Shown here: positions 31,377-56,486 of the stretch, one piece after another
How positions within the stretch are numbered: the first letter of the stretch is position 1
Layout of the letters: each line of letters opens with the position of its first letter
Origin: a virus
Taxonomy: Duplodnaviria > Caudoviricetes
DNA: 58,867 bases
Virus record (IMG/VR): IMGVR_UViG_3300049203_000265
Coordinates: 1-58,867 of that record
Strand: one strand, 5' to 3'
Program-made: the position numbers and the translations under genes
Notes under the pieces: model-generated
Told to the model about the DNA's origin: nothing
What the model saw: the letters and a program-made list of their open reading frames with translations, nothing else
Database searches by the model: none

Positions 31377-33221
31377 ATGCACGCACTGGACTTGGAGACG
31401 GCGCCCAACACCGGCGACCTGTCCAACGGTTGGGCCCTCGAGCCGTGGCGCGCCCGGCAGGGCAAGGCCCGCATCACGAGCGTCGCCGTGTACGGCGACA
31501 AGGTCCGCAAACAGATCCTCGAGCCGAAGCGCGAGCAGCTGATCGAGCTGCTCGAGGAGCTGGCCGGCGAGGAGGTGTACGCGCACTGGGCACTGTTCGA
31601 CATCGCGTGGCTGATCGCCTCGGTCGAGCCGAACCGGATGGCCCGCCTGCACGAGGCGGTCAAGCGTGTGAGGTGGCGCGACACGGCCCTCCTCGCCAAG
31701 TGGTGCATCAACGGCCGCAAGGCCGACGACATGTACTTCAGCTACGCACTGCTGAACCTCATCAACGTCTTCAAGGGCAAGATGGGATACGAGGGCGCGG
31801 ACGAATTCATCCGCATGAAGCAGGCCGAGGCGCTCGAACAGACCGACGAGTACTGGCAGAAGCGCGGCGAGCAGGACGTGCTGTGGACCTACCGCCTGGC
31901 CAAGTTCCTCGAGTCGCAGCTGCCGGCGCCGTGCCGCCGCGGCTTCGTCATCGAACAGAGGTCCCTACCCCAAATCGCCAACAGCTGGCTGATAGGCATG
32001 TATGTCGACCAGGATGCGTTCAAGAAAGCGGAGGCTCAGATCGAGAGCGACATCGCCGCGGGGTGCCGGGAGCTCGGACTTTCTGAGGCAGTTGTCGGAT
32101 CTCCAGCTCAGCTTGGCCGCGTTGTCTTTGGCGAGTGGGGATTTCAGCCTATCGCTACGACTCCTACGGGACAGCCTAAGGCCGACGCGGATACGTGGAT
32201 TGTTCTGGCGTACCAGTTTGGCGACCCGAGACTTAAGACTCTTCTCAAAACTCGGCAAGCACTTACCCTTCGATCCAAATACATCCGCACCGTTTACGAT
32301 GCTCTCGCTCACACCGGCGACGGGTACATGTACGGGAAGCCCCAGCTGTTCGGGACCACCTCCGGTCGGCTGACGATGACGAGCGAGACCGTCAAGGGCA
32401 TGAAGGTCTCCATGGCGATGCACCAGATACCGCGCAAGGACAAGATCATCCGCGCGTTCATGTCGCCCCCGCCGGGCTACAAGATCTTCGAGACCGACGC
32501 CGCGGCGCAGGAGTCGCGCATCATGGGCATCTGGTCTGGTGACGAGGAGATCACCCGCATCTTCAACGAGGGGATCAACTTCCACTCGAGCATGGCGTGC
32601 GAGATCTACCACATCCCGTACGAGACGTTCCAGGCCGAGCTGAAGAGGGAGAATCCGCAGTACATCGAGTTCCGGCAGATGGGCAAGCTGACCAACCTGT
32701 CGTGCAACTTCCGCATCGGCGGCAAGAAGCTGGCGATGAAGTCCCTGACGGAGTACGACAGCTACATGACCGAGATGGACGGCCGCAAACTGGTCCGGAC
32801 CTTCCAGCGCAAGTATCCGATGGTGCCGGCCTACTGGAACGCCATCATCGAGTTCGCTAAGCAGAACGGCTACAGCTACACGCTAGCCCAGCGCAGGTGG
32901 AAGGTGCCGACCGAGATGCTGAACTCCGGCGACGCGTGGAAAGTCGAAGGTACGGTCATCAGCCACCCGATCCAGGGCACCGGCGGCGAGATGTTTTTGG
33001 CAGCCCTTAGCCAGGTGCCGGAGGCGAGGATGCAGACCAGCCTACACGACGGCATCTTCTGGATGGTGGAGGACTCTCCGTACGGTCAGCAGGAGGCCGA
33101 CGAGATCCTGCACCGCATGAACAGCACCCCGTACGCCAAGCTGTGGGACATGGCCGAGCTGCCGATCCCGCTGCTGTACGAGGGCACGCGACTCGGGAGC
33201 TCGTATGCCGACGTCAAGTGA
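31377..33221 (+). CDS. polA: DNA polymerase family A with 3'-5' exonuclease
   Basis: ALDLET (ExoI), TTSGRL, motif A DAAAQESR, motif B RQMGKLTNLSCNFR, IQGTG, motif C LHDG. Confidence 0.92.
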   Translation: MHALDLETAPNTGDLSNGWALEPWRARQGKARITSVAVYGDKVRKQILEPKREQLIELLEELAGEEVYAHWALFDIAWLIASVEPNRMARLHEAVKRVRWRDTALLAKWCINGRKADDMYFSYALLNLINVFKGKMGYEGADEFIRMKQAEALEQTDEYWQKRGEQDVLWTYRLAKFLESQLPAPCRRGFVIEQRSLPQIANSWLIGMYVDQDAFKKAEAQIESDIAAGCRELGLSEAVVGSPAQLGRVVFGEWGFQPIATTPTGQPKADADTWIVLAYQFGDPRLKTLLKTRQALTLRSKYIRTVYDALAHTGDGYMYGKPQLFGTTSGRLTMTSETVKGMKVSMAMHQIPRKDKIIRAFMSPPPGYKIFETDAAAQESRIMGIWSGDEEITRIFNEGINFHSSMACEIYHIPYETFQAELKRENPQYIEFRQMGKLTNLSCNFRIGGKKLAMKSLTEYDSYMTEMDGRKLVRTFQRKYPMVPAYWNAIIEFAKQNGYSYTLAQRRWKVPTEMLNSGDAWKVEGTVISHPIQGTGGEMFLAALSQVPEARMQTSLHDGIFWMVEDSPYGQQEADEILHRMNSTPYAKLWDMAELPIPLLYEGTRLGSSYADVK

Positions 33222-35981: not shown

Positions 35982-36019
35982 TCAAAACGGTGTACACATA
36001 CGATCAACCGTGTTATAAT
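35980..36019 (+). promoter_or_regulatory. promoter AATCAAA-N4-TGTACA-N17-TATAAT
   Basis: Repeated motif. Confidence 0.8.
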
Positions 36020-36031
36020 AGGTGAACGACG

Positions 36032-36577
36032 ATGAGCAACATCCCTGATTTCGAGGACAGTGATCTCGACCCGGAGTGGGGCGAGGTGGACTTCGACGAT
36101 ACCAGCAAGAGCCCGAAGTTCTTCCCGATGCCGGCGCACGCGGTCGAGGATCCCGAAGTGTTCAAGACGATGCTCGAGAGCAAGGTCGACGGGCTGATCC
36201 TGATGTACCGTGAGATCCGTGACCAGCTCGGGACCGACCGCCATGGCTGGAAGGCCCGAGACGAGCTCATGAAGCGGCGCATGCTGCTCATCAGTTCGGA
36301 GCTCATGCGCCGTGGCGAGGCGCTCGGCGTGGACTCCTTCCGCACCGACCAGGGTACTGCCTACAAGCACACTAAGGAGAAGTTCAAGATCGAGAACTGG
36401 GACGAGGTGCGCGAGTACCTCGACGAGACCCACAACTACCACATCCTGCAGAAGCGCGTGTCGCCCGACGCGGTGCGTGGCATCCGCACGGAGGACGGCT
36501 CGCTCCCGAAGGGCGTGGGCGTCTTCGAAGAAGTCGAATTTGCGGTTCGCACGCCGACCGTCCGCAAATTCAAATAG
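36032..36577 (+). CDS. conserved replication-module hypothetical protein
   Basis: Coiled coil then SFRTDQGT...NWD...LQKRVS...LPKGV. Confidence 0.7.
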   Translation: MSNIPDFEDSDLDPEWGEVDFDDTSKSPKFFPMPAHAVEDPEVFKTMLESKVDGLILMYREIRDQLGTDRHGWKARDELMKRRMLLISSELMRRGEALGVDSFRTDQGTAYKHTKEKFKIENWDEVREYLDETHNYHILQKRVSPDAVRGIRTEDGSLPKGVGVFEEVEFAVRTPTVRKFK

Positions 36578-36595
36578 TCGGCTGGAGTAATAGAC

Positions 36596-37492
36596 ATGAG
36601 CATGGAAGTTCCGGAGTATCTGCGATCGGGCCCCGGCGCCGACGCTGCCAAGAAGGCCCTGGCGGACGCGGCGTCGATGGCCGCCTCGTCCAACAGTGTG
36701 CCCCGCATCAGCCTTCGAGGCCGCGAATTCCGCGTCATCGAAAACGGCGAGGAGATCAAGAAGTACCGCGACGAGATGCAGTTCGTCATCGTCGGCGTCG
36801 AGCCGGACGCGGGCTTCATGATCAAGACGTTCTACTCCAAGGGTTACCAGTCCGGCGCGAAGGAGCCGCCGTCCTGCAGCTCGGAGGACGGCATCGCGCC
36901 CGCGCCGTGGGTGCAGGAGAAGCAGGCTCCGACCTGCCGTCAGTGCCCGAAGAACGTGTTCGGTTCGGCCATCAGCCCGAGCGGCAAGCAGACCAAGGCC
37001 TGCCGTGACAGCAAGCGGGCGTGGATCGTGCTGGCCGACGACCCGAGGCCGGTGCACGAGCGCACTCTCTACGGCCTGAACGTGACGGTCGCCTCGCTGA
37101 AGGCGTTCTCGGACCACGGCCGCAAGCTGCACGCGGCCGGCGTGGCGCCGTTCATGGCGATCACGCGCGCCAAGATGATGGACGCGGAGTTCCCGCAGCT
37201 CGACTTCGAGTTGGCGGGGTGGGTCAGCCAGTCGGACCTGCCGCAAGTGACGAAGCTGAACATGGACAAGCCGTGGAAGATCCAGTTCGCCGGTGCGGGC
37301 CTCGCACTGGCAATGAGCGGCGGTGCGGACGCGTCTACGGCGCGGGCCACCCTGCCCACCAGCCTGCCGGGCCAAACGGAGCGAGCGGCGCAAGCTCCAG
37401 TGATGCAGGCGCCTGCATCGCAGCCCGTGCAGGACGCGGTGGTCCGCTCGCCCATCCCCGACGTCGGCAACACGGACGTCGACAGCTGGTAA
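36596..37492 (+). CDS. putative ssDNA-binding/annealing protein
   Basis: PSCSSEDG, CRQCPKNVFGS, KACR; low-complexity linker and acidic aromatic end (DVDSW). Confidence 0.6.
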   Translation: MSMEVPEYLRSGPGADAAKKALADAASMAASSNSVPRISLRGREFRVIENGEEIKKYRDEMQFVIVGVEPDAGFMIKTFYSKGYQSGAKEPPSCSSEDGIAPAPWVQEKQAPTCRQCPKNVFGSAISPSGKQTKACRDSKRAWIVLADDPRPVHERTLYGLNVTVASLKAFSDHGRKLHAAGVAPFMAITRAKMMDAEFPQLDFELAGWVSQSDLPQVTKLNMDKPWKIQFAGAGLALAMSGGADASTARATLPTSLPGQTERAAQAPVMQAPASQPVQDAVVRSPIPDVGNTDVDSW

Positions 37493-37493
37493 C

Positions 37494-37602
37494 ACCGGAG
37501 ACCGAATGGCGGGGTGCCGAGGCAGGTAGCCCGTCGCTCAGCGTATGAGCAGAATTAGGTCGTAGTTCCGGTCGAGCTGGGCATCTCTCGAAACTGCCCA
37601 CC
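37494..37602 (+). ncRNA. candidate structured leader of the modification operon
   Basis: Nested stems ACCGGAG/TTCCGGT, GGCGGG/CCCGTC, GCTCA/TGAGC, then a TGGGCA/TGCCCA hairpin. Confidence 0.45.
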
Positions 37603-37616
37603 AATTCGGAGGAATC

Positions 37617-39242
37617 GTGAAGAGTTTGCTGCTGACCCTCGGCCACAACAGCTCGGCCGTCCTGATGGACGACAACCGTGTGGCTTGGGGCTACGAGACC
37701 GAGCGGATTTCCGGGGCGAAGTCCGACAGCAATTTCCCGGCCCGAGTGCTCGAGCGCCGCCTGTGGTCGAGCGTGGACATGGTCTACGTCACTCACTGGG
37801 CGCCGACCGGCCAGCTGATCGACATGTCGCACAAACACTGGCGGCCGGAGTTCTTCGACGGCATACCCGTGCGGTCGCTCTCTCCGTCGTGCTCGCACCA
37901 CGACACCCACATCGCGGGCGCGATGTGTTACGCCGGCCCGCGCTTCCCCTACGGGCGGAAGACCATCGGCGTGGTGGTCGACGGGTTCGGCATCCTCGGC
38001 GAACACTTCAGCGTGTACCAGCTCGAGGCTCACCAGAAGCCGAGGCTCCTGCGCCGCGTGCACGGCTACGGCACCAGCCTCGGGCTGTGGTATCAGTACG
38101 CCACCGCCTTCATGGGTATGAAGATGCACGAGGACGAGTACAAGCTGCTCGGCTACGAGGCGCATATCCGGGAGGAGGACGCAGAAGACCTCGACCGCCT
38201 GTCCAAGAGCGCCTCGGAGAAGTGGCTCGAGTGGATGGGGCAATCCGTCTACGGGTCCGAGTTCGACCCAGTCTACAACCTCGCCGCGCTCGAGGAGGTC
38301 AAGAAGAAGGTGTTCGGCCAGCTTCTGGCCGTGTGCAAGTACTTCGGCCTCGCCGACCCGTCAGCCGACCTCTCGCGCCGCATCCTGTCGTACTACGTGC
38401 AGAGGGTGCTCGAGCGCGTGGTGGTCGGCCTGATCGACCTCAGCGCGGGCGACTACACCAACATGATCTGCTCGGGCGGTGTGTTCTACAACGTCAAGCT
38501 CAACAAGATCCTTCTCGACCAGGTGGCCGAGCGCGGCGGCCAGATGTGCGTGTACCCTCTGGCGGGCGACCAGGGCTGCGCTCTAGGCCTCTACGCCATC
38601 GACCACCCGGCACTGGAGTTTCCGAAGGACCTGAACTGGGGCGTGCGCGAGCTCTACGACGTCGGCGAGGTCAAGGGCCTCATCGTGTTCGAGAACGAGC
38701 TCGAGGCCGTCGACTACTCGATCCACCGCCTCCGTACCAAGGGCGTGGTGAACCTCGTGCGGGGCGCGATGGAATTCGGGCCTCGCGCCATGTGCAACAC
38801 GTCGACCATCGCCTTGCCCAACCGCAAGGTGGTGCGCAAGATCAACACGGCCAACGAGCGGAACACCGTCATGCCGATGGCTCCGGTCATGAGCGAGACG
38901 CAGTACACGTCGCTCCTCGAGAAGACCCCGCACGTGTGGCGCTCGCACCGCCACATGATAATGGCGATGGAGATGAAGGAGCACCCGTTGGACAACATGC
39001 TGGGCTGCACGCACGAGTACCATCGCCCGACGAAGCACCACACGTGCCGCCCGCAGGTGGTGGGCCCGAGCGACGGAGTCATGACCAAGATGCTGTCGGC
39101 CTTCGGGCACCCGCTCATCAACACCTCTTTCAACTATCACGGCATGCCCATCGCGTTCGACATGCCGTCGATCATACAAAACCACAACATGCAGCACCAG
39201 CGCGACAACGACTTTCACACAGTGGTGATCCAAAATGTCTAA
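37617..39242 (+). CDS. NodU/CmcH-family O-carbamoyltransferase
   Basis: GHNSSA, ER....K, HHDTH, VVDGFG, SGGVFYNVKLN, GDQG, EFGPRA, INTSFNYHGMPI. Confidence 0.92.
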   Translation: MKSLLLTLGHNSSAVLMDDNRVAWGYETERISGAKSDSNFPARVLERRLWSSVDMVYVTHWAPTGQLIDMSHKHWRPEFFDGIPVRSLSPSCSHHDTHIAGAMCYAGPRFPYGRKTIGVVVDGFGILGEHFSVYQLEAHQKPRLLRRVHGYGTSLGLWYQYATAFMGMKMHEDEYKLLGYEAHIREEDAEDLDRLSKSASEKWLEWMGQSVYGSEFDPVYNLAALEEVKKKVFGQLLAVCKYFGLADPSADLSRRILSYYVQRVLERVVVGLIDLSAGDYTNMICSGGVFYNVKLNKILLDQVAERGGQMCVYPLAGDQGCALGLYAIDHPALEFPKDLNWGVRELYDVGEVKGLIVFENELEAVDYSIHRLRTKGVVNLVRGAMEFGPRAMCNTSTIALPNRKVVRKINTANERNTVMPMAPVMSETQYTSLLEKTPHVWRSHRHMIMAMEMKEHPLDNMLGCTHEYHRPTKHHTCRPQVVGPSDGVMTKMLSAFGHPLINTSFNYHGMPIAFDMPSIIQNHNMQHQRDNDFHTVVIQNV

Positions 39243-39696
39243 CATCTCAGCAGAGATCGTCGAGCCAGTCCATTCGACGGACCCCGTCTTCGACGCGATC
39301 TACGACTTCAACGAGATGGTCGTCGGCGTGGCCGTCGACCTGAAGATCAACGGCCTGACCGACGACCAGCGCAAGTGGATGTCGAAGGCTCTCCGCGAGG
39401 AAGCGAAGGAGTTCGACGATGCCGAGGCCGTCATGAGTCATAGCTTCGAAGATTTCGTGGTGGCTCAGGTCGACGCGCTCCTCGACTCCATCTACTTCGC
39501 GGTGGGCGGGCTCAAAAAGATGGGTCTCACCCGTGCCCAGGCCTACGAGTGCATGATGGCAGTGCACCGTGCCAACATGAACAAGAAGCGCGGCGGCAAG
39601 GCCAGCCGTGGCAACTTCGCGGAGGACGCCGTCCGGACGGAGGAATTCGTGCCGCCCGAAGCCGCCATCAAGCGCATCATCTTCGGAGGCATCTGA
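39235..39696 (+). CDS. MazG-like nucleotide pyrophosphohydrolase (putative dCTPase)
   Basis: EEAKEF...VDALLDSIYFAVG...VHRANMNK. Confidence 0.8.
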   Translation: MSNISAEIVEPVHSTDPVFDAIYDFNEMVVGVAVDLKINGLTDDQRKWMSKALREEAKEFDDAEAVMSHSFEDFVVAQVDALLDSIYFAVGGLKKMGLTRAQAYECMMAVHRANMNKKRGGKASRGNFAEDAVRTEEFVPPEAAIKRIIFGGI

Positions 39697-40263
39697 ATGG
39701 CGATCGTACTCGAGGGGCCCGACAACGCCGGCAAGACGACGCTCGCTCAGGCCCTGCAATCCGCCATCCCGTGCCACTACGTGCACGCGGGTGGGCCGCC
39801 CGCGAGTTCCCAGGTCGAGCTCGATTGCCTCGCCAAGCAGCAGGCCCTCTTTCTCGAGCCGGACGCGGTGCTGGACCGCGTCACGTGCGTGAGTCAGTCG
39901 GTGTACAACCCGTCGGAGAGCATGGATCCCATCCGGCGCCACGCCCGCGCCCACATGGTGCACCAGGGCGTGCTGCTCGTGTTCTGCCGGCCGAGCACGG
40001 ACCGACTCATGCGGACCAACGACTTCACCTGGCGGGTGGACGAGCCCGACGAGCTGAAGCAGAAAATCGTGCACAACCAACAGACGTTCGTTATGCGGTA
40101 CGACCACGTCATGGCCGTCACGCCGCACGTGCACTACAACTTCGAAGAGCCGGGCATCGCCACACAGATCGCCGAGATGCTGGTGGACGTGCTGAAGGGG
40201 GACCTCGGAGCCTACAACGCACTGCACCGCATGATGCACATGCGAGGGGGAATCGTCGGATGA
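39697..40263 (+). CDS. dNMP kinase (thymidylate-kinase fold; putative hm-dCMP kinase)
   Basis: IVLEGPDNAGKTT P-loop; LDR...SQSVY. Confidence 0.8.
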   Translation: MAIVLEGPDNAGKTTLAQALQSAIPCHYVHAGGPPASSQVELDCLAKQQALFLEPDAVLDRVTCVSQSVYNPSESMDPIRRHARAHMVHQGVLLVFCRPSTDRLMRTNDFTWRVDEPDELKQKIVHNQQTFVMRYDHVMAVTPHVHYNFEEPGIATQIAEMLVDVLKGDLGAYNALHRMMHMRGGIVG

Positions 40264-41081
40264 AGGTCCTCAATTCCGGCCACAACGCCGTCTCGATGCT
40301 GGCCATGTACCGCATGGCCCTGTCCGGCGTCGAGATCCACGCCCGAGGCACGACGAGCCGCAACGTGCGCAACCTGTGCATCGTGCTGAACCCGCAGGAC
40401 TCGTGCCTCACCTCGTTCGACGCCCGCAAGCTGAACCTCGACTACTGCAAGAAAGAGTGGCTGTGGTATCTGCGGGCGGACAAGTACGACGACTCGATCG
40501 AGAAGCACGCCAGCATGTGGGCCAAGATCAAGCAGCCGGACGGGTCCTACTACAGCAACTACGGCCAGTACCTCTTCGCCCCCGGGCCGGTCGAGAGCGG
40601 CGCCTCGCAGTTCGAGTACTGCGTGCACACGCTGCGGAAGGACCCTGACTCGCGGCGGGCCTCCATTGTTCTGCTCCAGCGGAACCACCTCTTTCCCGAC
40701 AACGCCGACGTGGTGTGCACGTACGCCATCCACTTCTGCATCGAGCTCGGGCGCCTGCACATGACGGTCCACATGCGGAGCAACGACGTGGTGTTCGGCT
40801 TCACCAACGACTCGTTCTGCTTCTGGCAGCTGTACCGCTTCATGTTCGTACTGCTGAAGCTGAAGTACCCCGACCTCAAGTTCGGCACGTACACCCACAC
40901 GGCCAACTCCATGCACGTGTACGACCGGCACTACGAGATGCTGACCAAGATCGACTCGGCCGGCCTGGCTGGCCACACCGACGTCGACGTGCCGATGCCG
41001 ACGGCCAACGAGGTCGCCATCCTGATCAGGTCGAGGGGCGAGGACGGCGAAGGAGCGTACAGTGACTGGCTCAAGGCTTGA
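40260..41081 (+). CDS. thymidylate-synthase-family dCMP hydroxymethylase
   Basis: SNYG, DSRRA, catalytic DVVCT, MRSNDVVFGFTND (Asp at the TS Asn specificity site, as in T4 gp42), SMHVYDRH. Confidence 0.85.
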   Translation: MKVLNSGHNAVSMLAMYRMALSGVEIHARGTTSRNVRNLCIVLNPQDSCLTSFDARKLNLDYCKKEWLWYLRADKYDDSIEKHASMWAKIKQPDGSYYSNYGQYLFAPGPVESGASQFEYCVHTLRKDPDSRRASIVLLQRNHLFPDNADVVCTYAIHFCIELGRLHMTVHMRSNDVVFGFTNDSFCFWQLYRFMFVLLKLKYPDLKFGTYTHTANSMHVYDRHYEMLTKIDSAGLAGHTDVDVPMPTANEVAILIRSRGEDGEGAYSDWLKA

Positions 41082-41634
41082 CGTCGATGAGTATTTCCTC
41101 CTTATGGCGGAGCTTGTGGCACGACGCTCCACGTGCTCGCGCCGAAGCGTTGGCTGCGTACTCGTCAGCGCTAGCAACCACGTTCTCGCCACCGGATACA
41201 ACGGCGTTCACAAGGGCGCTGATCACTGCACTGAGGTACCGTGCGCAGGTGCATCGCTCCCGTCCGGCACGGGTCTCGACAAGTGCGAGGCTGTCCACGC
41301 GGAGCAGAACGCGATCATTCAGTGCCATGACACCGAGGCTATCCACACGGCTTACGTCACGGCTCGGCCCTGCGTGTTCTGCATGCGGATGCTCGCGAAC
41401 ACGAGTGTTCGACGAATCGTCTACCTAGAGGAGTACCCCCATGTCGAGACAGAACGGATCGCCCGAGTCCGAGAAATCGAGCTCGCCCACCGCCCTCGGA
41501 CCGGTGGCCCAGACGTTCCAGCACTGTGTGGACCAGTACGGGCTGATCGGGACGGCGCAGTGCAAATTGGTGTGGTACCACGCGAGTCTCCAGATGTACA
41601 ACCTGATGGTCGACGTGCTGCGGACGAACCCTGA
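41062..41634 (+). CDS. dCMP deaminase
   Basis: RSTC.RR.VG, TGYNG, HAEQNA, PCVFC zinc motifs. Confidence 0.9.
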   Translation: MTGSRLDVDEYFLLMAELVARRSTCSRRSVGCVLVSASNHVLATGYNGVHKGADHCTEVPCAGASLPSGTGLDKCEAVHAEQNAIIQCHDTEAIHTAYVTARPCVFCMRMLANTSVRRIVYLEEYPHVETERIARVREIELAHRPRTGGPDVPALCGPVRADRDGAVQIGVVPRESPDVQPDGRRAADEP

Positions 41635-41698
41635 GGTCATCGCGGCCGTCACGGCCGCGGTCAAGCACGACATCGACAAGTACTTCGAGGACCAGTAA
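41441..41698 (+). CDS. hypothetical protein overlapping the deaminase 3' end
   Basis: GAGGAG RBS; phage-typical codon usage in this frame. Confidence 0.6.
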   Translation: MSRQNGSPESEKSSSPTALGPVAQTFQHCVDQYGLIGTAQCKLVWYHASLQMYNLMVDVLRTNPEVIAAVTAAVKHDIDKYFEDQ

Positions 41699-41708
41699 GT
41701 CCGCCACT

Positions 41709-41749
41709 GATCAAATACGTTTACAAGGGGCGCCGGGACGGCGTACAAT
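41709..41749 (+). promoter_or_regulatory. promoter GATCAAA-N4-TTTACA-N18-TACAAT
   Basis: Repeated motif; ligase ATG 6 nt downstream. Confidence 0.75.
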
Positions 41750-41755
41750 AGACAT

Positions 41756-42835
41756 ATGGACGAGATCCGACTATTCCGGAAGAACCAGCTGGGCATCGGG
41801 ACCTGGCGCATCTGGGCCGAGGACGTGCGGCCCGACCAGGCTCACCTCTGCTACGCGCACGCCGTCACCGAGGGCGGGACCGAGGTACCGCACCGTGACA
41901 CGATCGTCATGAACGGGTCGGGGCGGAACATCGAGGAGCAGCTCAGGCTCGAGCGGGACTCGCGCGTGCGCCGCATGATGGATAAGGGGTATAAGCCCAC
42001 CCGCGACGAAGCCCTGCTCGGCGCCACCAACCAGCTCGGGCTGCTGAACCCGATGCTGGCCCAGACCATCGAGAAGGTGGCGTCGTTCGAGTTCGAGGGC
42101 GTCTTCGTGCAGCCAAAGCTGGACGGTCACCGCTGCATGATCACCAACCAGGGCGGTAACATCTTCGCGTACACGCGCAAGGGCCGGCCCATCGAGACGA
42201 TCCCCCACGTGCTGAACCAGTTCGGCTGGCTGCTCGAGGGCAAGACCGTGGACGGCGAACTGTACATCCACGGCGAGAAGCTGCAGACCATCAGCAGCCT
42301 CATCAAGCGGGCCCAGCCGAGGAGCTCCGAACTGCGCTTTCACTGGTACGACTGGATCTCGCCGCGCCCGTTCATCGCGAGGTGGGCCGAGATGAAGCAG
42401 GCCTATGCCACGAAGAAACCGGAATTCGTGGACCTCGTGCCGACGGTCGAGGTGTACAGTATGGAGGACGTGTACAGCCACTTCAAGGTGCACCGCGCAT
42501 CGGGCTACGAGGGTACCATGGTGCGGAGGTCGGTCGCGGGCTACGAGGCCAATTACCGCTCGCCCCAACTGTTGAAGGTCAAGGAGCGGCACGACTGCGA
42601 GGTCACCGTACTCGGCGGCAGGCCGTCGCGCGAGGGCTGGGCCATCCTGCAGGTGCGGATGGACAGTGGTAAGACGTTCGACGTGAGCGCGCCGGGGTCG
42701 GTCATCGAGAAGACGAAGGTCCTCGCCGAGATTCCGAAGTACGTCGGGCGGCGCCTGACGATCGAGTACGCCCACCTGACCAACGACGGCATCCCGTTCC
42801 ACGCCGTCGCGCTCCGGTGGAGGGAGGATCTGTGA
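41756..42835 (+). CDS. lig: ATP-dependent DNA ligase
   Basis: QPKLDGHRC, DGELY, YEGTMVR, LLKVK, GIPFH. Confidence 0.92.
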   Translation: MDEIRLFRKNQLGIGTWRIWAEDVRPDQAHLCYAHAVTEGGTEVPHRDTIVMNGSGRNIEEQLRLERDSRVRRMMDKGYKPTRDEALLGATNQLGLLNPMLAQTIEKVASFEFEGVFVQPKLDGHRCMITNQGGNIFAYTRKGRPIETIPHVLNQFGWLLEGKTVDGELYIHGEKLQTISSLIKRAQPRSSELRFHWYDWISPRPFIARWAEMKQAYATKKPEFVDLVPTVEVYSMEDVYSHFKVHRASGYEGTMVRRSVAGYEANYRSPQLLKVKERHDCEVTVLGGRPSREGWAILQVRMDSGKTFDVSAPGSVIEKTKVLAEIPKYVGRRLTIEYAHLTNDGIPFHAVALRWREDL

Positions 42836-43062
42836 GCCCCATCGAGCACTCATCGAACAACATCGTCATGAAGGCGCCGGAGGACATGCCCGACTGCATC
42901 GACCTTCTAGCCACCCGGTTGGAGGTCGACGGCTACCACGTCATCCAATCGTACTGGCAACCGTCCGAGCACGAGCTCAAACTGCTCGCGGCCGGCAAGC
43001 CGGTCATGCTGAGCATCTTCGGTCGCTCGATGTCCCCTGTCTGGATCACCGTTCCCGAATAG
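42832..43062 (+). CDS. hypothetical protein
   Basis: S.W.PS..E...L..G..V.L pattern; GGAGG RBS. Confidence 0.65.
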   Translation: MSPIEHSSNNIVMKAPEDMPDCIDLLATRLEVDGYHVIQSYWQPSEHELKLLAAGKPVMLSIFGRSMSPVWITVPE

Positions 43063-43108
43063 CCCCGGGGAGAGGGTAGGATCAAAATTTGTAACACCGC
43101 GTAACACA

Positions 43109-43339
43109 ATGACCTACGAATCCGACGAGATGGTCGGGCGCGCGTTCGGCCGCCTCACCGCGGTGGCTCGCGTCGGGAGCGACAAGTGGAAATCTGCCCT
43201 GTGGCTGTGCAGGTGCAGGTGCGGAAGAGAGACCACAGCCTCCGCGAGCAAGTTGGTTCGGGGCGAGCGGAAGTCGTGCGGGTGTCTAAAACTCGAATCA
43301 ATCGCGTACATCAACGCAGACCGAAGGGGGTCGACATGA
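43109..43339 (+). CDS. truncated homing-endonuclease-associated Cys domain
   Basis: G..FGRLT...WLCRCRCG...L..G..KSCGC with no nuclease domain following. Confidence 0.65.
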   Translation: MTYESDEMVGRAFGRLTAVARVGSDKWKSALWLCRCRCGRETTASASKLVRGERKSCGCLKLESIAYINADRRGST

Positions 43340-43755
43340 AAGCGTACGTACTGGGGTTCGCCTTCGACGACGTGGGCCGGGTGGTGCTCATGCGCAAGAA
43401 CCGTCCCGACTGGCAGAAGGGCCGTTGGAACGGCGTGGGTGGGCTCATCGAGGGCGGTGAGACACCGCAGGTGGCCATGGCCCGCGAGTTCAAGGAGGAG
43501 ACCGGCGTAGACGTGCACCCGGCCCACTGGACGAAGATCGGCAACATGGTCGGCACCGTGGGATGGTTCGTGCACGTGTATACCACGAAGGGCGTTGCCG
43601 TGCGGGACTGCCACACGTGCACCGACGAAGAGGTGAGCCACTTCGTGCCCTGGAAGCTCCCGGAAGGCATGATTCCGAACCTGCCGGCGATGATCAGCAT
43701 CGCGCAGATCGCCGAGGGCGACGAGCGGCCAGAGTTCGTGTTCAGTTACCGTTGA
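43336..43755 (+). CDS. Nudix hydrolase
   Basis: Nudix box GGLIEGGETPQVAMAREFKEETG. Confidence 0.9.
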   Translation: MKAYVLGFAFDDVGRVVLMRKNRPDWQKGRWNGVGGLIEGGETPQVAMAREFKEETGVDVHPAHWTKIGNMVGTVGWFVHVYTTKGVAVRDCHTCTDEEVSHFVPWKLPEGMIPNLPAMISIAQIAEGDERPEFVFSYR

Positions 43756-55050: not shown

Positions 55051-55440
55051 GTGAACAGATTTATCCTCGTGACCGTCAAGGTCAAGCTCCCGGTCACCGA
55101 CCTCGCGAACTGGGACGACCCGGACTCCGGCCCCGCGACCGACGTGCGGACCGCGGCCCTCTACCAGCAGAAGTGGTACGAGGACGGCAGTGTCGACCTG
55201 ATCGAGACGATTGCCATGGCCGACAAGGAGAACATCGAGGTCTCCTGCCACGGCTTCGACCTGCCGGTCGTGCCCGAAGTGCCGACCCCGGCCCAGCGCG
55301 CGATGCTCGCGGCCAACGCTCCGGGCAAAGCGCCAGGCCGCCCGGTCGACGGCCTCGGTCCGGCCATACCCGCCGAGCCGCCGGGAGCAGTGCCGGCCCC
55401 TCCGCCCGAGGCGGACGGCTCCCCCGGGAGGCAGCCGTGA
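55051..55440 (+). CDS. hypothetical protein with Pro-rich tail
   Basis: GAGGA RBS. Confidence 0.6.
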   Translation: MNRFILVTVKVKLPVTDLANWDDPDSGPATDVRTAALYQQKWYEDGSVDLIETIAMADKENIEVSCHGFDLPVVPEVPTPAQRAMLAANAPGKAPGRPVDGLGPAIPAEPPGAVPAPPPEADGSPGRQP

Positions 55441-56486
55441 ACGAGCTGAACGTCAGAGCGTTCGCCAAGTGCGACGGCACGGACGAGACCGCCGCGCTGA
55501 AGCGCGCGATCGACGTGGCCAGGTACCACAAAGTCGAGCTCCTCGTGCCGGCCAACACGGCCGTGCACTACTCCGAGGTCCTGACCCTCGACGGGGTGTC
55601 CGTCCGGGGCTTCGACGACACCTCGCAGCTCATCGCCCTCAACGAGGCCAAAGCCGCGATCGTCGTGCGCGGCAAGGGGCCGTCTCTGCGGAACCTCAGG
55701 CTCGGCATGGTGCCGAACCCGACCGCCCGCAAGGCGCCCTTCGAGTTCAGCCGCGTGGCGGTGCTGTGGGCCCAGGACTGGCACCTGGCCGACCTGCTCA
55801 TCGAGCGGGCCGCCGGCTGCGGCATCATCTCGTCCCGCGGCAGCTGCAACGGGTGGATCGAGAGCGTGACCGTGCGCGGCACCCTCGCCGACGCGGTCCA
55901 CATGACGGACGGCACGTCTCACGTGACCGTCTTCGACTGCGACGCCGAGGGCTGCGGCGACGACGGGATCGCCGTGGTCAGCAAGCGGGAACAGGCCGCG
56001 ATCTGCTCCAACATCCGCGCCTACCACAACCGCGTGCGCAACAGCCGGGGCGGCCGGGGGCTCACCGTGGTGGGCGGTCAGGACGTGGCCTACACCGACA
56101 ACTTCGTCGAGAACGTCCTCTCCGGCGCCGGCATCCTGGTGGCGCAGGAGGACGCGTACACGACCCGCGGCTGCAAGAACGTCACGGTAGCCAACAACAC
56201 GGTCCGCAACTGCGGGAACGTGGCGAACGGGCACACCATGGTCATGGTCCACTCGTCTGGTACGGAGCCGAACGAGGGCGTGCTCGTGTCGCGCAACCTC
56301 GCCGAGCAGACCACGACCGACGGATGGGCGACGCCCACGCCCTACGGCTACCGCGCGACGGGACCGGGGTCGAACATCGAGCTCAGCGGAAACGTCTACG
56401 TCGGGCCGCCCGACCGGGCGCGCGGGAACGTCTCCTCGGCGCTCTGGACGCCGTACACCGGCGGCCCGGTCGGGGTGATGTCGTGA
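55437..56486 (+). CDS. right-handed parallel beta-helix (pectate-lyase-like) protein
   Basis: AKCDGTDETAALKRAI N-cap, ADAVH, GDDGIAV, repeated I.AYHN.V.N / V.VANN.VRN rungs. Confidence 0.8.
   Translation: MNELNVRAFAKCDGTDETAALKRAIDVARYHKVELLVPANTAVHYSEVLTLDGVSVRGFDDTSQLIALNEAKAAIVVRGKGPSLRNLRLGMVPNPTARKAPFEFSRVAVLWAQDWHLADLLIERAAGCGIISSRGSCNGWIESVTVRGTLADAVHMTDGTSHVTVFDCDAEGCGDDGIAVVSKREQAAICSNIRAYHNRVRNSRGGRGLTVVGGQDVAYTDNFVENVLSGAGILVAQEDAYTTRGCKNVTVANNTVRNCGNVANGHTMVMVHSSGTEPNEGVLVSRNLAEQTTTDGWATPTPYGYRATGPGSNIELSGNVYVGPPDRARGNVSSALWTPYTGGPVGVMS

Follow-up and report, generated by a model that had tools for sequence, protein, structure and literature searches.

The chemistry of the phage carbamoyltransferase family was demonstrated by Yang et al. 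2021 (eLife, PMC8670742), who reported that carbamoyltransferase domains were enriched in phage contigs surviving a selection for modified cytosine and who purified one such metagenomic phage enzyme, encoded on a contig that also bore a thymidylate synthase (TS) homologue. The purified enzyme required carbamoyl phosphate and ATP and converted 5-hydroxymethylcytosine (5hmC) to 5-carbamoyloxymethylcytosine (5cmdC) in single-stranded DNA (nearly 100% on oligonucleotides) and to a lesser extent in double-stranded DNA, with approximately 60% conversion of 5-hydroxymethyl-dCTP (5hmdCTP); 5hmC in RNA was also converted, and the enzyme was inactive on 5-methyl-dCTP (5mdCTP) and 5-hydroxymethyl-dUTP (5hmdUTP). 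Carbamoyltransferase domains in that study co-occurred with TS, PRA-PH, dCMP-deaminase and MafB19 domains, the pairing of carbamoyltransferase with TS was restricted to modified contigs, and a 2025 paper counts carbamoylation among the known elaborations of 5-hydroxymethylated pyrimidines (PMC12783734). Here we describe a module of five genes, encoding a carbamoyltransferase, a MazG-like pyrophosphohydrolase, a P-loop kinase, a TS homologue and a dCMP-deaminase-family protein, in IMG/VR virus record IMGVR_UViG_3300049203_000265 (58,867 bp, classed as linear, with a CheckV completeness estimate of 100%), the whole of which was analysed and is hereafter called the window. The module probably yields carbamoylated 5hmC, most likely 5cmdC, in the phage DNA.

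The locus compares closely with the module of Yang et al. 2021 (PMC8670742), as the window has a Carbam_trans_N/C enzyme beside a TS homologue of the Asp177 type, a PRA-PH protein and a dCMP-deaminase/MafB19 protein, with the TS homologue approximately 1 kb downstream of the carbamoyltransferase. Domains and gene neighbourhood are the basis of this likeness, and 5cmdC is the predicted product in both cases. Unlike the published description, the window has a P-loop kinase between the pyrophosphatase and the TS homologue, a kinase having zero occurrences in that article (PMC8670742), and the module resides in a high-GC Xp15-like siphovirus from soil metagenomes in comparison to the metagenomic phage contigs of the earlier study. 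Our reading of the locus is the published one, and since both the chemistry and the gene association have been in print since 2021, the window brings no new principle and is one more case of a known anti-restriction device.

The window also follows the same pool-reprogramming logic as the T4 hydroxymethylcytosine pathway (gp56, gp42, gp1, cd and the glucosyltransferases), and its deaminase and T4 cd are members of one family. Unlike T4, the window pyrophosphatase is an all-alpha MazG-like protein, T4 gp56 belonging to another fold; the tailoring enzyme is a carbamoyltransferase where T4 has a glucosyltransferase, and the window lacks a phage TS or ThyX. A third comparison is provided by Stenotrophomonas phage AXL3 (gp31-gp27; MT536174, locus L029, 1491-5525), in which a tailoring enzyme, a nucleoside triphosphate (NTP) pyrophosphatase, a kinase, a TS homologue with Asp and Cys-Thr and a dCMP deaminase occur in the same order, the last four having identities to the window proteins of 30%, 37% (N-terminal part), 28% and 46%, respectively. 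The first AXL3 gene, unlike that of the window, is annotated as a methyltransferase in the carbamoyltransferase's place, and AXL3 also carries a ThyX-type gene where the window has none (PMC7504290). When AXL3 DNA was exposed to 37 restriction enzymes, only the two with A/T-only sites cut, while it resisted all 35 with G/C in the site (PMC7504290). This recurrence of the cassette with a different first gene, in a phage whose DNA resists enzymes with G/C sites, suggests that the scaffold is modular and that its tailoring enzyme can be swapped to give different C5 cytosine modifications.

The product of the first gene matched Carbam_trans_C (E-value 1.1e-20) and Carbam_trans_N (1e-14) of Pfam, both over cut-off, and PHROG 1601 'Nol-like carbamoyltransferase' over its full length (4e-53), and its best solved relatives were TobZ and the novobiocin carbamoyltransferase. 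O-carbamoyltransferases of the TobZ/NodU family require a hydroxyl acceptor, and among the candidate products of the TS homologue only a hydroxymethyl group supplies one. Residues H94, H98 and D318 aligned to the His/His/Asp positions of TobZ, which we take to be its metal ligands, and were conserved in 26/26 sequences (the window and 25 viral homologues). The preliminary description of this DNA had treated it as established that NodU-family phage carbamoyltransferases encoded near TS homologues carbamoylate 5hmC, which the enzyme data of Yang et al. 2021 (PMC8670742) bear out. In the same work, W408, G421 and R423 of TobZ marked the positions differing most between carbamoyltransferases of modified and unmodified contigs (PMC8670742). 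At these positions the window enzyme has L380, C393 and T395, and the 26 viral sequences have Trp in none, Cys in 25 and Thr in all 26, where the alignment uses an inferred PDB-to-TobZ numbering offset of 6. These residues, shared within the clade, are compatible with membership of the published group, whose modified-contig residues the 2021 paper gives only in a figure supplement.

The fourth gene product matched Thymidylat_synt of Pfam (PF00303; 1.4e-19) over profile positions 30-219 of 266, leaving the C-terminal positions 220-266 unmatched. A sequence search of the PDB ranked MilA CMP 5-hydroxymethylase (4.3e-20) and T4 dCMP hydroxymethylase (2e-18) highest, with 75 and 70 bits, while true thymidylate synthases followed at 3.4e-14 or weaker (56 bits). 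This ranking and the unmatched C-terminal positions speak indirectly for a hydroxymethyl product. Because it missed the cut-off of every TS equivalog model of NCBIfam, with at most 51.4 bits against cut-offs of 108-405 (327 for the best-scoring model), the protein is not a canonical ThyA, and it has Asp instead of Asn at position 177 and Cys-Thr instead of His after the catalytic Cys. The preliminary description had likened this Asp to that of T4 dCMP hydroxymethylase, and the alignment agrees: the motif RSNDVVFGFTND was set by HMMER on MRSNDVVFGFRND of the T4 chain (1b49/1b5e), and over this T4 segment the window reads MRSNDVVFGFTND, whose last Asp corresponds to T4 D179 (N177 in E. coli). 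The structure of the T4 D179N mutant (6l18) departs from the alignment at exactly this column. Positions aligned to T4 E60, C148 (as Cys-Thr), the RSxD motif and D179 were all kept (1b49/1b5e, 5b6d), the window and gp42 are near-identical over MRSNDVVFGF-ND, and the DSRR phosphate-binding motif and the SxHxY motif were also conserved. This is the sole TS-family gene in the genome; a second TS, ThyX or trimeric dUTPase gene was absent from the window.

Relatives of the module were detectable at the protein level only, as 50,697 phage records, searched by Megablast with the 4-kb region, gave no match. The carbamoyltransferase protein matched 20 phage records, with the best identities to Xanthomonas phage Xp15 (41%), the Acinetobacter phages MD-2021a, HHU4 and Effie (approximately 40%) and six Bacteroides phages (33%). 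Gene neighbourhoods were compared across the 25 nearest viral and phage loci that encode a homologue of the carbamoyltransferase; 22 of these came from a scan of IMG/VR and the other three from annotated phages. In 23 of the 25, tblastn (E 1e-3 or better) located a TS homologue no more than 7 kb from the carbamoyltransferase; the exceptions are L021 and L023, the latter cut just upstream of the carbamoyltransferase. These 23 loci gave 24 TS matches, every one with Asp as the specificity residue and Cys-Thr at the nucleophile position. The deaminase was found in 14 loci by tblastn; the pyrophosphatase in four by tblastn and six by a profile built from its homologues; and the kinase in five by tblastn, with a kinase-like open reading frame (ORF) in 18 by profile, nine of these being weak matches (E 4e-4 to 4e-3). 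The full collinear order of five genes was present in five loci, namely L002 (Xp15), L003 (Effie), L005, L020 and L025. This shared order, together with the proximity of TS homologue and carbamoyltransferase in 23 of 25 loci, indicates that the arrangement is not due to chance. Two annotated phages showed other arrangements. The carbamoyltransferase of Bacteroides phage BF503P1 (L004, 5986-12015) is accompanied by a trimeric-type dut gene and two TS homologues of the Asp type, and tblastn found no MazG-like, kinase or deaminase homologue at that locus; this gut phage version of the system is built differently. The closest TS homologue of an annotated phage (43.5% identity) was that of Ralstonia jumbo phage RsoM2USA (MG752970, 7742-8419), whose distant carbamoyltransferase homologue (24%; 123542-125023) lies approximately 115 kb away, so that the pairing is not always a tight cluster.

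Xp15 gp39-gp35 (NC_007024) and Effie genes 390-350 form the identical five-gene set in the identical order, and are annotated there as 'hydrolase', 'DNA polymerase subunit', 'thymidylate synthase' or 'hypothetical'. Compared with Xp15 and the Acinetobacter phages Effie, HHU4 and MD-2021a, the window module proteins have only 25-52% amino-acid identity and no nucleotide-level match. The best matches of the window portal protein were also Xp15 (41%) and Acinetobacter phages (37%), and Xp15, Effie and L005 keep the same genes on either side of the module, for proteins of 181 and 298 aa upstream and an ATP-dependent ligase downstream. On the basis of these portal matches and syntenic flanks the module is native to the Xp15-like lineage and not a recent insertion, and by sequence comparison the window phage is a distant Xp15-like siphovirus in soil metagenomes. 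The complete cassette of tailoring enzyme, pyrophosphatase, kinase, hydroxymethylase-like TS and deaminase is thus inherited with the core genes of a lineage that includes cultured Xanthomonas and Acinetobacter phages (Xp15, Effie, HHU4), which are usable to test for 5cmdC in virion DNA. A literature search, thin on subscription journals and supplements, found no report on DNA modification in Xp15 or its relatives.

The second gene product scored 23.2 bits against PRA-PH of Pfam (PF01503; cut-off 21.3) and matched the PHROG families 'hydrolase' and 'nucleotide pyrophosphohydrolase'. Nine homologues besides itself were found, and residues E55, E56, E59, D80 and D84 were invariant across 12 sequences. 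Sequence searches of the PDB gave only weak matches for this protein (E 0.04 or weaker) and P-loop noise for the kinase (E 0.055 or weaker), and both proteins were therefore modelled with AlphaFold (AF2) and searched by fold. The MazG-like model had a predicted local distance difference test score (pLDDT) of 86 and five helices of at least four residues, and its top Foldseek match was the MazG-like pyrophosphohydrolase DR2231 of Deinococcus (E 2e-3, template modelling score approximately 0.6), which was crystallised with dUMP and dUMPNPP; the dCTPases DCTPP1 and RS21-C6 matched at E >1. As the nearest structure was solved with dUMP analogues, a dCTPase label for the window protein is an assumption, and judging from the model it may be a dUTPase or act on both dCTP and dUTP. 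The same structural match also speaks for a thymine-side pathway of the SPO1/ViI type, whereby the deaminase would supply dUMP, the TS homologue would convert it to 5-hydroxymethyl-dUMP and the carbamoyltransferase would decorate 5-hydroxymethyluracil (5hmU), and phages with 5hmU likewise encode dCMP deaminase, TS-like hydroxymethylases and deoxynucleoside triphosphate (dNTP) pyrophosphatases. This pathway is nonetheless highly improbable given the Asp, in place of Asn, at the pyrimidine-specificity position of the window protein and of 24/24 linked TS homologues, and given that the characterised carbamoyltransferase is inactive on 5hmdUTP (PMC8670742).

No family of NCBIfam was matched above cut-off by the third gene product, and Pfam gave a sub-threshold P-loop match alone, while PHROG 761 'thymidylate kinase' was matched at 4e-10 over the N-terminal 108 residues. 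A search of 5.8 billion clustered proteins gave 39 homologues besides the window protein, nearly all without a Pfam match (a precomputed PF02223 match was present on two of the 39), and an EGPDNxGK P-loop and a DR motif were invariant in 29 of the homologues. The AF2 model (pLDDT 93) was closest by Foldseek to YorR/BSU20280 of the SPbeta prophage (E 1.9e-5), followed by adenylate, shikimate and thymidylate kinases. Structural alignment with VIA-align likewise ranked YorR/BSU20280 first (2axp; Z 13.8, root-mean-square deviation 3.5 over 163 residues), followed by thymidylate kinases (Z approximately 12, one at 12.2), deoxynucleoside kinases, PPK2 and shikimate kinases. The model thus points to a nucleotide-kinase-fold protein, and its position in the module suggests that it would act on 5-hydroxymethyl-dCMP (5hm-dCMP). 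The module in this way draws attention to a conserved P-loop kinase family that has no Pfam model and was overlooked by domain-based co-occurrence analysis.

The fifth gene product matched dCMP_cyt_deam_1 of Pfam (PF00383; 3.4e-20, 72 bits against a cut-off of 25) and MafB19-deam (PF14437; 4.9e-11), and bears the HAE and PCxxC zinc motifs when aligned to 2hvv, 4p9c, 2w4l and 1vq2. Its best solved relative was the dCMP deaminase of S. mutans (6.6e-20), with T4 cd at 7e-10, and its closest phage relatives were those of a Mediterranean metagenomic phage, Xp15, AXL3 and the cluster A mycobacteriophages. Homology stops near codon 142 (approximately 41487), and the last 48 codons had no homologue and no signal in the GC content at third codon positions (GC3), which drops to 0.27-0.30 in the deaminase frame past 41520. 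This tail overlaps a GC3-rich ORF of 85 codons in a different frame (41441-41698), and neither the tail nor the 85-aa ORF product had a homologue in the 25 loci. An assembly frameshift was considered as the origin of the tail; an error peculiar to this assembly is unlikely, as contigs from four other soil runs (possibly from one campaign) showed no indels across 41367-41800. Strain variants were also compared, with 30 differences falling inside the five genes out of the 40 best-supported of 88. Of the codons that differed, 8/9 in codons 1-142 of the deaminase and 7/12 in the carbamoyltransferase had synonymous changes; over the first 16 codons of the overlapping ORF, 3/4 changed the amino acid. 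These counts indicate purifying selection on the deaminase core and a probable start of the overlapping ORF at a later position, and the tail is probably read-through.

The substrate of this deaminase bears on the end state of the DNA. According to a 2024 preprint (10.1101/2024.12.05.627091), modified-cytosine contigs show a strong association with dCMP deaminases encoded beside Asp-type TS homologues, some TS-linked deaminases favour 5-methylcytosine (5mC) and 5hmC at the triphosphate level, some convert 5hmdCTP to 5hmdUTP, and the deaminase of 5mC phages is proposed to yield dTTP from 5-methylated dCTP. The selectivity is described there as polyphyletic and the main text names no diagnostic residues (10.1101/2024.12.05.627091). 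By analogy, the window deaminase might act on a modified nucleotide instead of dCMP. This can be extended to a different end state, with carbamoylation that is incomplete or short-lived, or with a deaminase that uses 5hm-dC nucleotides and thereby also brings 5hmU, perhaps further modified, into the DNA in place of thymine; the virion bases would then differ from a plain exchange of 5cmC for C. The preprint hypothesis that TS-linked deaminases are adapted to modified cytosine, with enzymes converting 5hmdCTP to 5hmdUTP (10.1101/2024.12.05.627091), would favour such an outcome, as would the absence of TS and ThyX from the phage and the dUMP analogues in the structure nearest to the MazG-like protein. 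We nevertheless regard it as unlikely, as polyphyletic selectivity cannot be read from sequence (10.1101/2024.12.05.627091), the window deaminase is nearest to ordinary dCMP deaminases (S. mutans and mycobacteriophage cluster A), and the characterised carbamoyltransferase is inactive on 5hmdUTP (PMC8670742). In a related proposal, one hydroxymethylase would feed both pyrimidines, giving 5-carbamoyloxymethylcytosine for cytosine and 5hmU or a derivative for some or all thymine; the deaminase would then be selective for modified cytosine and act on 5hm-dC nucleotides, and the MazG-like enzyme would clear canonical dUTP or dTTP. In a milder form of the proposal, carbamoylation would take place on 5hm-dCTP and the polymerase would incorporate 5-carbamoyloxymethyl-dCTP directly. 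We give this two-pyrimidine arrangement only a small chance of being correct.

For the preferred product, carbamoylated 5hmC, the following order of steps is proposed. The MazG-like pyrophosphatase would turn dCTP, and perhaps dUTP, back to the monophosphate, after which the TS homologue would use methylene-tetrahydrofolate to place a one-carbon unit on C5 of dCMP, with attack by water giving 5hm-dCMP. The P-loop kinase would phosphorylate 5hm-dCMP and a host NDP kinase would complete 5hm-dCTP for incorporation by the phage DNA polymerase, and the carbamoyltransferase, with carbamoyl phosphate and ATP, would O-carbamoylate the hydroxymethyl group on either 5hm-dCTP or nascent single-stranded DNA. 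As the phage lacks its own TS and ThyX, the deaminase would send part of the cytosine (deoxy)nucleotide pool towards dUMP for the host thymidylate synthase. Such a pathway could lead to full substitution of cytosine and to protection from restriction. Much the same route from dCTP to carbamoylated DNA, through dCMP, hydroxymethylation, phosphorylation and incorporation, had been put forward in the preliminary description; as a proposal it remains reasonable, with its hydroxymethyl, dCTPase and deaminase steps to be worded more cautiously than they were there. We hold the individual roles of pyrophosphatase, kinase and deaminase with less confidence than the product of the module, while the gene families, their key residues and the synteny were established in this analysis.

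Several points count against this reading, and the first concerns the TS homologue. In the 2024 preprint, the TS partners of seven deaminases were predicted to form 5-methyl-dCMP (5mdCMP) and five of the seven Asp-type enzymes were shown to do so (10.1101/2024.12.05.627091); Asp at the position of N177 does not, on this evidence, separate methyl from hydroxymethyl products, and Asp177 alone is no proof of a hydroxymethyl product. An alternative interpretation is thus a methylcytosine cassette of the Xp12 type, where the TS homologue would make 5-methyl-dCMP, the kinase and polymerase would place 5mC in the DNA, the deaminase would turn 5-methyl-dC nucleotides into dT nucleotides, explaining the absence of TS, and the carbamoyltransferase would use another acceptor. 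Besides the five 5mdCMP-forming enzymes and the preference of the deaminases for 5mC and 5hmC (10.1101/2024.12.05.627091), this cassette would fit the lack of TS and ThyX in the window and the existence in AXL3 of the pyrophosphatase-kinase-TS-deaminase order without a carbamoyltransferase. Against it stand the co-location of the carbamoyltransferase with an Asp-type TS homologue in 23/25 loci and its translational coupling into the cassette, the best solved relatives of the TS homologue, which are hydroxymethylases, and the characterised family member, which requires 5hmC and is inactive on 5mdCTP (PMC8670742). We therefore favour the hydroxymethyl product, as the carbamoyltransferase needs a hydroxyl group, the characterised enzyme rejects 5mdCTP (PMC8670742) and the pairing is kept in 23 of the 25 loci, and consider an Xp12-type cassette quite unlikely. 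The record of Xp12, whose TS homologue is verified to form 5mC, was not encountered through the search with the window deaminase, among the best 60 of 1041 matches to the window TS homologue, or among all 17 matches to the AXL3 TS homologue.

The remaining points concern the other genes and the literature. The MazG-like model is nearest, at a modest E-value, to a structure with dUMP and dUMPNPP as ligands and reaches DCTPP1 only at E >1. The kinase model resembles generic P-loop small-molecule kinases, and T4 gp1 was not among the Foldseek and VIA-align matches listed for it, with no evidence that the two folds differ. By tblastn the pyrophosphatase and the kinase were present in only four and five of the 25 loci, and by profile in six and 18, half of the latter as weak matches, so the five-gene form is one lineage's version of the system. 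The deaminase gene has a GC3 of 0.67-0.80 in comparison to 0.85-1.0 for its neighbours, in addition to its odd 48-codon tail. Finally, a literature search with the same thin coverage of subscription journals and supplements returned no report of 5cmdC in the virion DNA of an isolated phage.

The layout of the module and the other features discussed are given in Table 1. All ORFs of the five tightly packed co-directional genes named in the preliminary description (37617-41634) were present, and their coordinates, strand and Pfam/PHROG families agreed. The operon named there is not delimited, as the module sits within a long co-directional replication module. Genes 1 and 2 share 8 nt, gene 3 begins directly after gene 2 (0-nt gap), genes 3 and 4 share 4 nt (ATGA) and genes 4 and 5 share 20 nt; a GGAGG- or AAGGAG-like sequence precedes four of the five gene starts. 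The carbamoyltransferase is translationally coupled into the cassette, since its stop overlaps the start of the pyrophosphatase gene. A scan of 36000-43200 found no terminator-like site on the + strand and two on the - strand (3.6 expected by chance), and one promoter-like site at 41720-41749 (0.9 expected by chance), a result that is uninformative on where the unit begins or ends.

Table 1. Positions in the window of the module genes, of a downstream NUDIX hydrolase gene and, for context, of the phage DNA polymerase gene
Feature	Predicted role	Position	Strand	Length	Family match
Gene 1, NodU/TobZ-family O-carbamoyltransferase, TS-linked clade	Predicted 5hmC carbamoyltransferase	37617..39242	+	541 aa	
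Gene 2, MazG-like all-alpha NTP pyrophosphohydrolase	Predicted pyrimidine dNTP pyrophosphatase (dCTP and/or dUTP)	39235..39696	+	153 aa	
Gene 3, P-loop nucleoside/nucleotide-kinase-fold protein	Predicted kinase for modified dCMP	39697..40263	+	188 aa	
Gene 4, thymidylate-synthase-family pyrimidine C5 transferase	Predicted dCMP hydroxymethylase	40260..41081	+	273 aa	
Gene 5, dCMP-deaminase-family zinc deaminase (core codons 1-142, to ~41487, and 48-codon tail)		41062..41634	+	190 aa	
NUDIX hydrolase, downstream of module	Possible second dNTP pyrophosphatase	43186..43755	+		Pfam NUDIX 2.9e-13
Phage DNA polymerase	Enzyme that would need to accept modified dCTP	31377..33221	+		PHROG 17 'DNA polymerase' 7.7e-58

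The window has a GC content of approximately 0.61-0.69 and also encodes a terminase, portal, major head protein, tape measure, J-like central fibre, primase, DNA polymerase, PD-(D/E)XK nuclease, SNF2 helicase, ligase, NUDIX hydrolase and a 3'-5' exoribonuclease-like protein, a gene content consistent with a siphovirus; no tRNA genes were found in the whole window. Twenty-four listed soil or rhizosphere metagenome runs contained module sequence, and in nine of these half or more of the sampled words were matched; all 24 are in contig form, with no RNA run among those listed. The GC-only palindromes CCGG, GGCC, CGCG and GCGC had observed to expected ratios (O/E) of 1.01-1.10 in the window and the median O/E of 6-mer palindromes was 0.96; this absence of palindrome avoidance fits, if weakly, a genome protected otherwise than by site avoidance. 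CTAG was under-represented (O/E 0.53).

The NUDIX hydrolase gene lies two genes downstream of the ligase gene. Its product had weak NCBIfam matches far under cut-off, including pyrimidine (deoxy)nucleoside triphosphate diphosphatase (1.3e-6), and no homologue in the 25 related loci, and it could be a second enzyme of the dNTP pool. Directly upstream of the carbamoyltransferase (36032-37492) are the genes of the two proteins shared with Xp15, Effie and L005, the larger of which is Cys-rich and belongs to PHROG 27714. Near the right end of the window, far from the tail module at 16-28 kb, a gene at 55173-56486 encodes a 437-aa right-handed beta-helix protein (Beta_helix and an alpha-1,3-glucanase-like domain) that is depolymerase- or tailspike-like.

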